Source of the DNA: Escherichia coli
GTDB lineage: Bacteria > Pseudomonadota > Gammaproteobacteria > Enterobacterales > Enterobacteriaceae
Assembly (NCBI RefSeq): GCF_036507355.1
Contig: NZ_AP027877.1
Direction: 5' to 3' (one strand)
DNA: 64,000 nt
Part shown: one piece after another, positions 6,199 to 10,819 of the stretch
Numbering within the stretch: position 1 is the first letter of the stretch
Layout of the letters: every line of letters begins with the position of its first letter
Made by a program: the position numbers and the translations under genes
Notes under the pieces: model-generated
What the model saw: the letters and a program-made list of their open reading frames with translations, nothing else
Databases searched by the model: none
Told to the model about the DNA's origin: nothing

Positions 6199-7674
6199 AT
6201 GAATACCCAGTATAATTCCAGTTATATATTTTCGATTACCTTAGTCGCTACATTAGGTGGTTTATTATTTGGCTACGACACCGCCGTTATTTCCGGTACT
6301 GTTGAGTCACTCAATACCGTCTTTGTTGCTCCACAAAACTTAAGTGAATCCGCTGCCAACTCCCTGTTAGGGTTTTGCGTAGCCAGCGCTCTGATTGGGT
6401 GCATCATCGGTGGTGCCCTCGGTGGTTATTGCAGTAGCCGCTTCGGTCGTCGTGATTCACTTAAGATTGCTGCTGTCCTGTTTTTTATTTCTGGTGTAGG
6501 TTCTGCCTGGCCAGAACTTGGTTTTACCTCTATAAACCCGGACAACACAGTGCCTGTTTATCTGGCAGGTTATGTCCCGGAATTTGTTATTTATCGCATT
6601 ATTGGCGGTATTGGCGTTGGTTTAGCCTCAATGCTCTCGCCAATGTATATTGCGGAACTGGCTCCAGCTCATATTCGCGGGAAACTGGTCTCTTTTAACC
6701 AGTTTGCGATTATTTTCGGGCAACTTTTAGTTTACTGCGTAAACTATTTTATTGCCCGTTCCGGTGATGCCAGCTGGCTGAATATTGACGGCTGGCGTTA
6801 TATGTTTGCCTCGGAATGTATCCCTGCACTGCTGTTCTTAATGCTGCTGTATACCGTGCCAGAAAGTCCTCGCTGGCTGATGTCACGCGGCAAGCAAGAA
6901 CAGGCGGAAGGTATCCTGCGCAAAATTATGGGCAACACGCTTGCAACTCAGGCAGTACAGGAAATTAAACACTCCCTGGATCATGGCCGCAAAACCGGTG
7001 GTCGTCTGCTGATGTTTGGTGTGGGCGTGATTGTAATCGGCGTTATGCTCTCCATCTTCCAGCAATTTGTCGGCATCAATGTGGTGCTGTACTACGCGCC
7101 GGAAGTGTTCAAAACGCTGGGGGCCAGCACGGATATCGCGCTGTTGCAGACCATTATTGTCGGAGTTATCAACCTCACCTTCACCGTTCTGGCAATTATG
7201 ACGGTGGATAAATTTGGTCGTAAGCCACTGCAAATTATCGGCGCACTCGGAATGGCAATCGGTATGTTTAGCCTCGGTACCGCGTTTTACACTCAGGCAC
7301 CGGGTATTGTGGCGCTACTGTCGATGCTGTTCTATGTTGCCGCCTTTGCCATGTCCTGGGGTCCGGTATGCTGGGTTCTGCTGTCGGAAATCTTCCCGAA
7401 TGCCATTCGTGGTAAAGCGCTGGCAATCGCGGTGGCGGCCCAGTGGCTGGCGAACTACTTCGTCTCCTGGACCTTCCCGATGATGGACAAAAACTCCTGG
7501 CTGGTGGCCCATTTCCACAACGGTTTCTCCTACTGGATTTACGGGTGTATGGGCGTTCTGGCAGCACTATTTATGTGGAAATTTGTCCCGGAAACCAAAG
7601 GTAAAACCCTTGAGGAGCTGGAAGCCCTCTGGGAACCGGAAACGAAGAAAACACAACAAACTGCTACGCTGTAA
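6199..7674 (+). CDS. xylE: D-xylose:H+ symporter XylE (MFS, 491 aa)
   Basis: ORF track; MNTQYNSSYIFSITLVATLGGLLFGYDTAVISG... sugar-porter motifs; AT-rich promoter region upstream. Confidence 0.96.
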   Translation: MNTQYNSSYIFSITLVATLGGLLFGYDTAVISGTVESLNTVFVAPQNLSESAANSLLGFCVASALIGCIIGGALGGYCSSRFGRRDSLKIAAVLFFISGVGSAWPELGFTSINPDNTVPVYLAGYVPEFVIYRIIGGIGVGLASMLSPMYIAELAPAHIRGKLVSFNQFAIIFGQLLVYCVNYFIARSGDASWLNIDGWRYMFASECIPALLFLMLLYTVPESPRWLMSRGKQEQAEGILRKIMGNTLATQAVQEIKHSLDHGRKTGGRLLMFGVGVIVIGVMLSIFQQFVGINVVLYYAPEVFKTLGASTDIALLQTIIVGVINLTFTVLAIMTVDKFGRKPLQIIGALGMAIGMFSLGTAFYTQAPGIVALLSMLFYVAAFAMSWGPVCWVLLSEIFPNAIRGKALAIAVAAQWLANYFVSWTFPMMDKNSWLVAHFHNGFSYWIYGCMGVLAALFMWKFVPETKGKTLEELEALWEPETKKTQQTATL

Positions 7675-7684
7675 TCTTCCTGTC

Positions 7685-7720
7685 CAGCACGCCGCGCCAG
7701 TTCGGCGTGCTGTCTTTTTA
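7685..7720. terminator. hairpin terminator between convergent xylE and psiE
   Basis: CAGCACGCCGCGCCAGTTCGGCGTGCTG stem-loop followed by TCTTTTT; sits between two convergent genes. Confidence 0.7.
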
Positions 7721-8128
7721 CTCCCGCTTCAGCCGTTTCGAATTACACAGCCACAGGGTGATCACCAGTAACAGGATCGCAGCCGAGTAGATCAACACAT
7801 CCAGTGGCGATTTATGATCGACGATGATCAAGCGCACAATGGCGGTGATCCCAATATAGACAAAGTAACGTAGCGGGAAGTGAAAACCGGACTGAAAGTA
7901 CTTCACAATCAGCGCGATAAATTCGAAATAGAGAAAGTAAACCACCAGTCCTTCTACCAGCTCATATTTGCTGGTTTGTTCTGGCGCGAACAGCACATCA
8001 GCCAGATGCACCGTTTCTTTGCCGAGGAAGACAACCAAAATCAGGCCGAGGCACAACAGGCCAAGATTGAGTACGGTCTGCAAAATGGTGGAGATAAACT
8101 CCACGCGCGGACGAGAGAGTGACGTCAT
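7718..8128 (-). CDS. psiE: phosphate-starvation-inducible inner membrane protein PsiE (136 aa)
   Basis: ORF track; [38 protein letters not shown]... Confidence 0.95.
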
Positions 8129-8257
8129 AGCAGTACCTCCTTCACAGTGGCGAGCTTCCTGTATAACGCAAAAATGTGACGGAGATCTATATTTTTTGTG
8201 TATGTTTTGTTCAACCTGGATTTGGAGCGCGCCTCCACCAAAGCCGGATATACCTAC

Positions 8258-8300
8258 CCGTAGGCCGGATAAGCCGCGCCTGGCGGCGCATCCGGCAAGA
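8258..8300. repeat. REP element pair
   Basis: GTAGGCCGGATAAGCCGCGCCTGGCGGCGCATCCGGCAAG. Confidence 0.75.
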
Positions 8301-8397
8301 CAAACCGCACCAAAGCCGGTAATTCAAAAATCACCCATTCAGGTGATTCCCAGCCACCAGCAATGCGCGAAAAATCGACAATGTTCCTCTGGAACAA

Positions 8398-8676
8398 ATG
8401 AAACGTAACCTGATAAAGGTGGTAAAAATGAAGCCTTATTTTGCTGCTTTGATGTTATCAGTCTCTGTTCTTCCTGCTTATGCTGGTCCGCTCGGTACTG
8501 CTGATAAAGCCGACCTACCGCAAAGCAATGTCTCCAGCCCAATGATGGCCCAGTCGCTCAGGCAACCAGACCTGCAACCGATATCGACGGACAGGAAGAC
8601 AGAATGTTTTCGCCTTTACACACCAGATCGCAAACCGGGGGTGAACTGCGTTCCTGATGGCTCGACAGGCCATTAA
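8398..8676 (+). CDS. yjbT: small putative secreted protein (YjbT-like, 92 aa)
   Basis: ORF track; N-terminal signal-peptide-like MKPYFAALMLSVSVLPAYA; position between psiE and yjbH matches the small yjbT gene as I recall it. Start could be the internal MKPYF Met (8428). Confidence 0.5.
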   Translation: MKRNLIKVVKMKPYFAALMLSVSVLPAYAGPLGTADKADLPQSNVSSPMMAQSLRQPDLQPISTDRKTECFRLYTPDRKPGVNCVPDGSTGH

Positions 8677-8722
8677 GAATGAAGGTGCCAGTGAGTGCGA
8701 AAACTGGCACCTTTCCCATGAC

Positions 8723-10819
8723 TTAGCGGAAATTGACGCTACGGTCGCTGGTCATGTCATACAACTGGAACTTACGCCCAAGTTGCTGACCACCGTCACG
8801 CGTCAGCGGCGTCCAGCCAATCGCCGCACGGCTGCGTGTCGGGCCAGACGAGAAGAGATCCAACGGTACCGAGACATACACGCCTTTGGTGAAGTCCCCT
8901 TCGCCGTACTCCTCTTTCGAAACATTCGTGATCGTGGCATAGCCACCCACCACCACACCACTGTCAAAGCGTTTGGCGATCTCCAGCGTGCCGCCTTTAT
9001 CCCCTGCCAGATACTGCCCGACGCTGGCTTTAACTAACACATCCTGAGCGAAAGATGGCGTCCAGTAGGCGGTCAGATGTCCGGTTTTCACGCTGTAATC
9101 GGTGAATTTCATCATATCTTTCGCGCTACGCCAGTCGCGCTGTTTAACGTAGTTGGCATCCAGACCAAACGCCCAGTTGCTGTCCAGCGGGCGATACAAC
9201 ACCTCAGCCCCCGCACCGCCAAACATGGTTTCGAGATAGCCGCCGTAGACCTGACCGTAGAAGCCGTTGCCCAGATGCTGGAAGTAGTTGGCTTGCAGGT
9301 TATTCACATAGACATCATTCTGCACATACTCGCGCACATGGGTACGCACGCGCGGTAAGTGCGAGTCCTGCGGCGGATTGGTGTAGTTAAACTTGTCGTA
9401 GTTGTTAGCCAGGTTAGCAAACAGGCTGCCGGTGGTCAGCAGATGGTCCGTCAGCCACAAATCTGCCGTTCCCATCACGCCCAGCTGATACATGTAAAAG
9501 TTTTCCGGGCCACCGACCGACTGGTTCAGCACCGGATCGATATGGAAATCAAAGCGTGATTTGTCGATATACCAGCCCTGCTCGGTGGACTGCGGAACCA
9601 CTGGCTCGACGCGTTTTTGCGCCAGCGTCGTTTCGTGGCCCAACGGCTCTCCGGCGAGATGATTTTTCAGGCTGGCGACATCGGTTTCCGTCGTCACCTG
9701 CGGCATGTTAAGGCGATTTTCCGTAATGCGGATCGTTTTGATCCCATCCGGCAGATCGTTCATCACGATCCGATTAGCACGGATGATCCCTTCGAGCGAA
9801 TCACGATATTTCACCTGCTCGCCGGTAACATACAGCGTATCGCCTTTCGCCTGGATCTGTGGATCGGCAAGTCCAGCATTGTATTTCAACAGCGTTAACT
9901 GATTCGCCACCACCGAATGCTGCAAAATGGCATCCTGCGGCTGCGGTTGATATTGCGGGCGGGCGTTATCGTTGTAAGACGGGCGCAGATCGTTAAAGTT
10001 GGTGCGCAACGTAACGCCAAACATAAAGGTGTTGCCACGTTCATAGCTAAGGTTAACGTCGGCCCAATCGGTAACGCGATAAATCGCCCCGACGTTAAAC
10101 TTACTTTTTTGCTCCAGCTTCCCGGCAAAATCCTGCTGATAATTATTGCCTTCATACTCCAGTTTCAGGCGCAGCGGTTGCCAGGGCGTCTGGTATTCCA
10201 CGCCGCCAAACAGTGAGGCAGGACCGTGGAACATCTGGCTACCGTCGATAGATCCCGCCTGTTTGTAGCTGTTATCGCGATAGCAATATTTATCACTGGC
10301 TGAACAGAGCGGATTTTTCACATTACCGCTGGTGCCCAGATATCCCCAGCCCAGGCCGAGCGTAAAATCGAACGGCCCCCAGGCTTTGCTGGCAACAAGA
10401 TATTCCGCATCAAACAGCCCCGTACCGCCGATATCCCGCGCACCAACCGCCACTTGCGGCAGCCAATAACTCTCTTCCCACAAACGCAGTTTGAGATCGA
10501 AGGCTTTATCTTTATACGTTTGATCGCCAGAGAACGCTTCGACGCTGCTGTACTGCCGGGTGCGCACGTCGGTGTAGCGCAGCGTTGTTTCCAGCCACGG
10601 GAAGAGTTGCACTGAAGCTGAGTAATAACGGTACTGATCGTTATCGCGATAGTTCAGACTCAACTCCCCTTCCCGTGCCATACGCGCGGTGGGCGTTTGT
10701 AATAATCCTACGCCCCCGAAATCCGACTGCGACGGACCAATGGGCGCAGGATATGTTTCGCCGTAGCAAGCTGTGCTAATGCCCAGCGCCAGTAAGCTAA
10801 GCAGATGTCTTTTTTTCAT
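8723..10819 (-). CDS. yjbH: YjbH, outer-membrane beta-barrel lipoprotein of the yjbEFGH exopolysaccharide locus (698 aa)
   Basis: ORF track; [24 protein letters not shown]... lipoprotein signal; last gene of yjbEFGH. Confidence 0.9.

Follow-up and report, generated by a model that had tools for sequence, protein, structure and literature searches.

yjbT of Escherichia coli, a small single-gene unit with a conserved two-cysteine tail and a probably misannotated start codon

The 92-codon open reading frame (ORF) analysed here lies in a 64,000-nucleotide stretch of an Escherichia coli contig (NZ_AP027877.1), hereafter the window, and is the gene yjbT, which is already known, annotated in K-12 and thousands of other genomes, and of uncharacterised function. 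The explanation that accounts best for the evidence overall, and that is considered quite likely, is that yjbT is a real monocistronic gene encoding a small envelope protein. The additions made here are a probable correction of the start codon, which in the reference annotation of this y-ome gene is probably wrong by 10 codons, and the localization of selective constraint to a C-terminal tail with two cysteines. For discovery the gene matters little, and the practical gains are modest.

Identity and annotation of yjbT

The locus comprises the following features:

6199-7674, plus strand: xylE
7718..8128, minus strand: psiE, the neighbour upstream of yjbT
8398..8676, plus strand: yjbT, an ORF of 92 codons with an ATG start and a second in-frame ATG at 8428
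8723..10819, minus strand: yjbH, the neighbour downstream of yjbT

The ORF and its second in-frame ATG are as described in a first-pass annotation of the window made from the letters alone, which also placed both neighbours, psiE and yjbH, correctly on the opposite strand. The name yjbT had been suggested in that annotation, and the identity is now established by the annotation of NC_000913.3, a 593-bp alignment and a Pfam match. In K-12 MG1655 (NC_000913.3) the ORF corresponds to yjbT (b4620, 'PF17089 family protein YjbT', 4239777-4240055, minus strand), which the annotation table of that genome likewise shows flanked by yjbH and psiE. Over the 593-bp psiE-yjbH spacer region the window differs from K-12 by a single base change, which is synonymous (GGG for GGA), and the orthology with b4620 is thus supported by both locus and near-identical sequence. 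The match to the Pfam model PF17089 (YjbT) spans its full length, residues 1-92 aligning to model positions 1-92, and scores 217.7 bits (E = 1.4e-65), the curated gathering threshold being 27 bits. That ORF 8398-8676 is E. coli yjbT (b4620) is practically beyond doubt. The protein is identical to K-12 YjbT (UniProt YJBT_ECOLI; PF17089 'YjbT, uncharacterised protein family') and is encoded at the same genomic position; the gene model proposed here differs from the database entry in starting at 8428 and encoding 82 aa, rather than starting at 8398 and encoding 92 aa.

The first-pass remark that small secreted proteins are often under-annotated does not apply to yjbT, which PGAP calls in essentially every complete E. 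coli genome under the name 'periplasmic protein'. The 593-bp spacer was found in 5416 of 5426 complete E. coli genomes and the yjbT coding sequence in 5415 of the 5426. NCBIfam contains no model matching YjbT.

Coding status and selection

The length of the ORF alone is not beyond chance, because the same 4-kb region holds many spurious ORFs of 80-146 aa. The frequency of such ORFs, together with the lack of structure, function or protein-level evidence for yjbT, would fit a chance frame whose conservation derives from a non-coding element, either an RNA or a regulatory region. This reading is effectively refuted by the codon-level pattern. When the homologue of a Kluyvera-like locus (L004) was used as the comparator, the last 25 codons showed 18 synonymous differences at 18.7 synonymous sites and 0 non-synonymous differences at 56.3 non-synonymous sites; by our arithmetic, with synonymous and non-synonymous sites at about 1:3, the probability that 18 of 18 changes would be synonymous is ~1e-11 under neutrality. 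Since the silent sites of the tail are saturated and its amino acids unchanged, which is the opposite of nucleotide-level constraint, an RNA or regulatory explanation is excluded and strong selection on the protein tail is indicated. Between L004 and Kluyvera georgiana, the same 25 codons gave a dN/dS of 0.02.

Loss of the reading frame in relatives had been put forward in the first-pass annotation as an observation that would refute the gene; instead, five genera retain the frame together with its start, both cysteines and the features of the signal peptide. Moreover, no Rfam family is found at the ORF, the sole exception being a REP-derived match upstream. The probability left to a chance frame is negligible, and yjbT is, with near certainty, a real protein-coding gene. 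It is not listed in the supplements of one ribosome-profiling and one N-terminomics study, both E. coli-related.

The purifying selection demonstrated for the tail does not extend evenly along the protein. In a 38-codon middle segment, E. coli and L004 differ with a pN of 0.50 and a pS of 0.59 (dN/dS about 0.7), and the middle of YjbT evolves almost neutrally.

Predicted export

The N-terminal part of YjbT contains one predicted feature:

8428..8484, plus strand: signal peptide MKPYFAALMLSVSVLPAYA, 19 codons, with predicted signal peptidase I (SPase I) cleavage between A19 and G20

The peptide MKPYFAALMLSVSVLPAYA-GP, correctly read from 8428, had been taken in the first-pass annotation for a plausible Sec signal peptide, and the sequence features that support this prediction are retained in 10/10 diverged homologues. 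They comprise a positive n-region (K2), a c-region with A-Y-A before G, and a hydropathy maximum of 2.41 (Kyte-Doolittle, 11-residue window) at FAALMLSVSVL. Small residues at -3/-1 (A/V/S/C-x-A/S) occur in 10/10 homologues although the sequences have diverged. In a heuristic check, YjbT thus shows the properties of a Sec substrate of SPase I, defined as a basic n-region, a hydrophobic h-region about 10 or more residues long, and residues at -3/-1 that are small and uncharged. Processing by SPase II is not indicated: no cysteine lies in or adjoins the E. coli signal peptide, and a lipobox, sought as [LVI]-[ASTVI]-[GAS]-C where the signal peptide ends, is absent from all 10 homologues. Two members of the family (P0021 and P0022) have A-P-C near the end of the signal peptide, in which proline at -1 does not fit a lipobox. 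Export and cleavage of YjbT are accordingly predicted with good confidence.

YjbT resembles the generic small periplasmic proteins that are exported via Sec and SPase I in Enterobacteriaceae in its A-x-A signal peptide, absence of a lipobox and small mature size, and in being encoded by a stand-alone gene with its own terminator. It differs from them in having a mature part for which no fold is predicted and no other family gives a match, and in that conservation is confined to a tail of 20-25 residues with two cysteines.

Linker and two-cysteine tail

The mature part may be divided into two segments:

8485..8598, plus strand: variable linker (residues 20-57) with many P, S and Q residues, for which no structure was predicted with confidence
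8599..8676, plus strand: conserved C-terminal tail TECFRLYTPDRKPGVNCVPDGSTGH with the stop codon; Cys codons at 8605-8607 and 8647-8649 (C-x13-C)

As judged from the alignment of 10 diverged homologues, the only strongly conserved part of YjbT is the two-cysteine tail of 20-25 residues, in which T58, C60, P70, G71, N73, C74, P76 and D77 are invariant. From the same alignment a core motif was defined, T-x-C-[FY]-x(9)-P-G-[VIL]-N-C-[VI]-P-D, which E. coli YjbT contains at residues 58-77. The two cysteines, 13 residues apart, are invariant in 10/10 homologues, and the mature part of most members has exactly two; in P0021 and P0022 an extra one lies close to where the signal peptide ends. A DsbA substrate would be expected to have such a conserved pair of cysteines in its exported part.

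AF2 did not yield a confident fold. The full precursor, modelled with a 10-sequence alignment, had a pLDDT of 56 and no secondary structure beyond the signal-peptide helix; the linker (pLDDT 51-58) had none, and an alignment of the 35-residue tail gave a pLDDT of 60, also without secondary structure. The structure of the tail loop is therefore a conjecture. Neither the family profile nor the tail matched any PDB sequence, and no YjbT match was found among the NCBIfam, PADLOC and PHROGs profiles.

The succession of a signal peptide, a near-neutral region that might act as a 'pro' segment and an extremely conserved, cysteine-containing C-terminus would also be compatible with a pre-pro-peptide, from which the linker would be cut off after export to release a disulfide-closed tail of 20-25 residues as a signal, inhibitor or toxin. 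The same could be said of the isolated position of the gene, which has no partner gene, and of the lack of a globular fold in the AF2 prediction. By analogy, YjbT recalls the precursor of the heat-stable enterotoxin STa, in which a signal peptide and a poorly conserved middle precede a short conserved C-terminus that contains cysteines; in STa these form three disulfides. YjbT, however, has no sequence similarity to STa, could form one disulfide rather than three, and has neither a conserved cleavage site nor evidence of release; it is chromosomal, whereas STa is located on plasmids or transposons. The residues before T58 (RK, HV, RR, HR, HV, RV, LN and YN) constitute no conserved processing site. 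No similarity to a peptide, toxin or bacteriocin family was found in Pfam, NCBIfam, PADLOC, PHROGs or PDB, genes for export, immunity or maturation are absent nearby, and yjbT is not carried by plasmids or phages. Release of the tail as a free peptide is thus considered improbable.

Start codon

The first-pass annotation had left the start codon ambiguous between 8398 and 8428, which correspond to 4240055 and 4240025 (minus strand) in K-12. The ambiguity is real, and the evidence favours 8428. Two features bear on the choice:

8398..8427, plus strand: N-terminal extension MKRNLIKVVK, 10 codons, annotated as coding
8416..8423, plus strand: Shine-Dalgarno (SD) sequence AAGGTGGT, with a GGTGG core at 8418-8422, 5 nt before ATG 8428

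All non-Escherichia homologues (75-85 aa), which come from four other named genera and two metagenomic lineages, begin at the methionine equivalent to E. coli M11, that is, at the equivalent of ATG 8428. The upstream ATG occurs in Escherichia only, and in Pseudocitrobacter, Buttiauxella (P0021) and Shimwellia an in-frame stop precedes the shared ATG by 7-9 codons. Pairing with the anti-SD sequence was calculated at -8.2 kcal/mol for the AAGGTGG before ATG 8428 versus -3.3 kcal/mol for ATG 8398, and the site equivalent to that of 8428 scored between -6.1 and -8.6 kcal/mol in 11/11 loci checked. The place of an SD sequence for ATG 8398 is occupied by a conserved hairpin (8383-8395) that ends 2 nt ahead of the codon.

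The annotated protein of 92 aa would be correct if translation began at ATG 8398, giving a signal peptide with a long and highly basic n-region (MKRNLIKVVKMK). Both K-12 and PGAP annotate 279 bp (92 aa), and such an n-region is compatible with Sec export and would yield the same mature protein. ATG 8398 is present in E. coli, E. albertii, E. whittamii and two further Escherichia species, but this conservation carries no information, since these species are closely related and almost identical over the entire leader. According to directional RNA-seq (PMC3734233), the codon would usually lie on the transcript, since 5' ends of yjbT fall at about 8377, 8386, 8391 and 8392, 6-21 nt upstream of it; a further 5' end, obtained in LB, lies at about 8423 and hence downstream of ATG 8398. 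Two more ends within the coding sequence (PMC3734233) are probably coverage artefacts. All these positions were derived from U00096.2 coordinates (±1 nt); they mark where assembled coverage stops rather than mapped transcription start sites, and they scatter over 8377-8637. Set against the missing SD sequence at ATG 8398, the hairpin that occupies its place, the 5' end downstream of it and the absence of the codon from all other genera, with in-frame stops in three of them, translation of the 92-aa form is regarded as rather unlikely. Initiation at ATG 8428, yielding 82 aa, is favoured with considerable confidence, and the extension 8398..8427 is probably untranslated 5' UTR. The choice of start codon leaves the predicted mature protein unchanged.

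Upstream region

The spacer between psiE and yjbT contains the following elements:

8259..8299, no strand assigned: REP element with an inverted repeat (8264-8277/8283-8296), not part of the conserved yjbT unit
8330..8347, plus strand: palindrome ATCACC-N6-GGTGAT, about 98 nt before ATG 8428
8347..8375, plus strand: candidate weak sigma-70 promoter, with -35 TTCCCA (8347-8352), a 17-nt spacer and -10 AAAAAT (8370-8375)
8383..8395, plus strand: conserved hairpin GTTCC-TCT-GGAAC, located at the mRNA 5' end or close to it

The REP sequences that had been noted upstream of the ORF were recovered as an imperfect palindrome (8264-8296) and as a weak Rfam match to the REP-derived naRNA4 (8263-8355). 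Conservation across genera begins abruptly at about 8325, and everything further upstream varies with the REP element. The sequence is polymorphic over 8230-8325: in E. coli strain 9 the element is missing and the region is shorter by about 55 bp, E. albertii has two copies, and matches that cover about 80% of the spacer in two pieces recur as a class within the 5416 genomes. A 'hypothetical protein' of 47 aa (WP_000487766.1) is annotated by PGAP at 8254-8397 on the minus strand in many genomes of E. coli; this ORF overlaps the REP element and the conserved yjbT leader, cannot be encoded in strains without the REP element, and is probably a spurious call.

In 7/10 loci, including that of Buttiauxella izardii in an unrelated gene context, ATCA(C)...TGAT occurs between -96 and -100. 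A related ATCACCC, without the full palindrome, is present near the same position in L004 and Buttiauxella P0021, and Shimwellia lacks the element. The arms of the GTTCC-GGAAC hairpin, found at -44 to -48 in 9/10 loci, are invariant, and its spacer measures 3-5 nt. The distances of the palindrome (about -98) and the hairpin (about -45) to the ATG are constant, even in Buttiauxella with its unrelated neighbours. GTTCC-N3-5-GGAAC is best read as a 5'-terminal hairpin, which coincides with the RNA-seq 5' ends; a binding site for a dimeric protein is disfavoured because the length of the spacer varies. Readings of GGAAC as a sigma-E or sigma-54 element were rejected by eye, the spacing to CTGAT being 11-12 nt rather than 16 and GC being missing at -12.

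The candidate promoter agrees with the consensus at 8/12 positions, below the threshold of the scanning tool, and the consensus scan called neither a promoter nor a terminator at yjbT. The RNA-seq 5' ends fall just downstream of it, and a -10-like hexamer precedes the GTTCC hairpin by 7 nt in E. coli, Pseudocitrobacter (GATAAT) and L004 (AACAAT). From the sequence we infer a weak promoter just upstream of the 5' ends, with the palindrome touching its -35 region; ATCACC-N6-GGTGAT may accordingly be an activator site touching that region, or else a hairpin. RNAalifold paired ATCACC (8330-8335) with GGTGGT (8418-8423) of the SD sequence, which would mask the latter, with no covariation, and the E. 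coli leader folds no better than shuffled sequences (z = -1.5). The conserved leader of roughly 100 nt is the regulatory region of yjbT to examine.

On the opposite strand, a non-coding RNA of 61 nt has been predicted in the b4620/b4030 spacer (PMC3734233, Additional file 13), corresponding to about 8322-8382 on the minus strand of the window. Read in that orientation, the palindrome gives a hairpin with UUUUU after it (z = -2.6), and the RNA resembles a short terminated transcript that diverges from the start of yjbT.

Transcription unit

Transcription of b4620 as a single-gene unit was detected in 7/7 samples or conditions by directional RNA-seq (PMC3734233). Downstream of the gene lies one structural element:

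8682..8713, no strand assigned: GC-rich hairpin with a perfect 11-bp stem, lying between the stop codons of the convergent genes yjbT and yjbH

The 46 nt that separate the gene from the yjbH stop codon are taken up by this hairpin (folding energy -20.1 kcal/mol, z = -4.8), and a hairpin of different sequence occupies the same place in 6/7 homologous loci. It has no strong U-tract and was not called by the terminator scan; it is likely to be a shared terminator or a 3' stabilizer. yjbT is monocistronic, and its putative terminator hairpin is conserved in position.

Family distribution and genomic context

The YjbT family is very small and is found in only a few genera of Enterobacteriaceae. A word-indexed search of 5.8 billion proteins returned 14 matches, mostly E. 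coli variants and fragments, and an exhaustive profile search of 1.84 billion cluster representatives returned 12. A scan of 100,044 species genomes found YjbT in Escherichia species and K. georgiana only, using two exact peptide patterns that would miss diverged members. The named sources of diverged members are K. georgiana, Pseudocitrobacter sp., B. izardii, Buttiauxella sp. and Shimwellia pseudoproteus; ten of the diverged members give a clean alignment.

The order psiE-yjbT-yjbH is shared by Escherichia, K. georgiana, Pseudocitrobacter and the P0015 lineage. Elsewhere the neighbours differ. In B. izardii they are csbD and an NmrA-like gene, and in Shimwellia abgT and a NUDIX gene; a contig of Buttiauxella sp. 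has a DUF2767 gene next to yjbT, and L004 has a GH1/PTS operon. In Kluyvera, a gene for a hexapeptide-repeat acetyltransferase of 151 aa is inserted between yjbT and yjbH (L012 5377-5832 in K. georgiana; L007 528-983).

The shared order would be expected if YjbT were an accessory factor of the YjbEFGH exopolysaccharide export system or of PsiE, and a periplasmic ligand could reach YjbH, an outer-membrane protein of the GfcD/YjbH family. Yet yjbT is convergent to yjbH and transcribed as its own unit, its homologues in Buttiauxella, Shimwellia and L004 lie in unrelated contexts, and the common position elsewhere is explicable by vertical inheritance. The yjbEFGH genes are widely distributed among Enterobacteriaceae, and with 12 profile matches in 1.84 billion sequences many Enterobacteriaceae that carry yjbEFGH and psiE appear to be without yjbT. 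Within the species, E. coli EC42405 retains psiE and yjbEFGH in the absence of yjbT. A role tied to these neighbours is judged unlikely. On this evidence YjbT probably acts on its own, its adjacency to yjbH being best explained by descent rather than partnership, and synteny with yjbEFGH and psiE should not be taken as functional linkage.

About 10 complete E. coli genomes are without yjbT. In the bovine strain EC42405 (L023, NZ_CP043414.1 4721610-4729695), the order is malG-psiE-yjbH with a 120-bp spacer, and both xylE and yjbT are missing. Since such genomes exist, and since yjbT was not found in most genera of Enterobacteriaceae, its role is dispensable. Public data also contain frameshifted variants (P0006, P0012, P0013 and P0014), one of them from Shigella flexneri, which represent pseudogenes or errors of sequencing. 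The gene is not found on phages or true plasmids: the phage collection contained no match. Six 'plasmid' records with yjbT (H38-H43) are 0.65-4.9 Mb in size and non-mobilizable, and represent split or mislabelled chromosomes.

Proposed role of YjbT

In the favoured interpretation, that of a small envelope protein, the yjbT mRNA would begin at about 8377-8392, at the conserved 5' hairpin, and the AAGGTGG sequence would recruit ribosomes to initiate at ATG 8428, yielding a precursor of 82 aa. The 19-residue signal peptide would take YjbT through Sec, with signal peptidase I presumably cutting after AYA. The resulting mature protein of 63 residues, with the expected N-terminus GPLGTADK, would consist of a flexible, fast-evolving linker and the strictly conserved tail of 20-25 residues. 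In the oxidizing periplasm a disulfide between Cys60 and Cys74, closed by DsbA, would create a loop of 13 residues (FRLYTPDRKPGVN). This loop may be the working part, a docking epitope for a conserved envelope component, for which the linker would be a mere spacer. That the disulfide loop is the functional unit is considered moderately probable; that YjbT binds an envelope partner is a more tentative proposal. Any such partner is not expected to be encoded beside yjbT, because the neighbours differ between genera.

A bolder and rather improbable idea is that YjbT is a vehicle for a small disulfide-closed peptide, tethered or released, which would act as a ligand or inhibitor of a core envelope machine or sensor, its expression being set by a regulator at the ATCACC-N6-GGTGAT palindrome beside the weak promoter. 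Were this so, the envelope target would be common to Escherichia, Kluyvera, Pseudocitrobacter, Buttiauxella and Shimwellia. For the small envelope protein favoured here, the functional part is narrowed to the two-cysteine tail, in which C60, C74 and PG-x-NC-x-PD offer targets for mutagenesis; the tail also lends itself to pull-down with a synthetic cyclic peptide.

Searches of structures, domains and the literature returned no function for YjbT, and no papers were found for PF17089. The relevant mentions of yjbT in the literature are table entries only, one as a flanking-gene label in genomic SELEX and the other in a machine-learning feature list. The SELEX entry concerns an FlhDC-bound site inside yjbH (K-12 about 4236932-4237161, old coordinates) that is flanked by yjbG and yjbT, and it has no evident link to yjbT. 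In the machine-learning list, yjbT most likely just marks E. coli.
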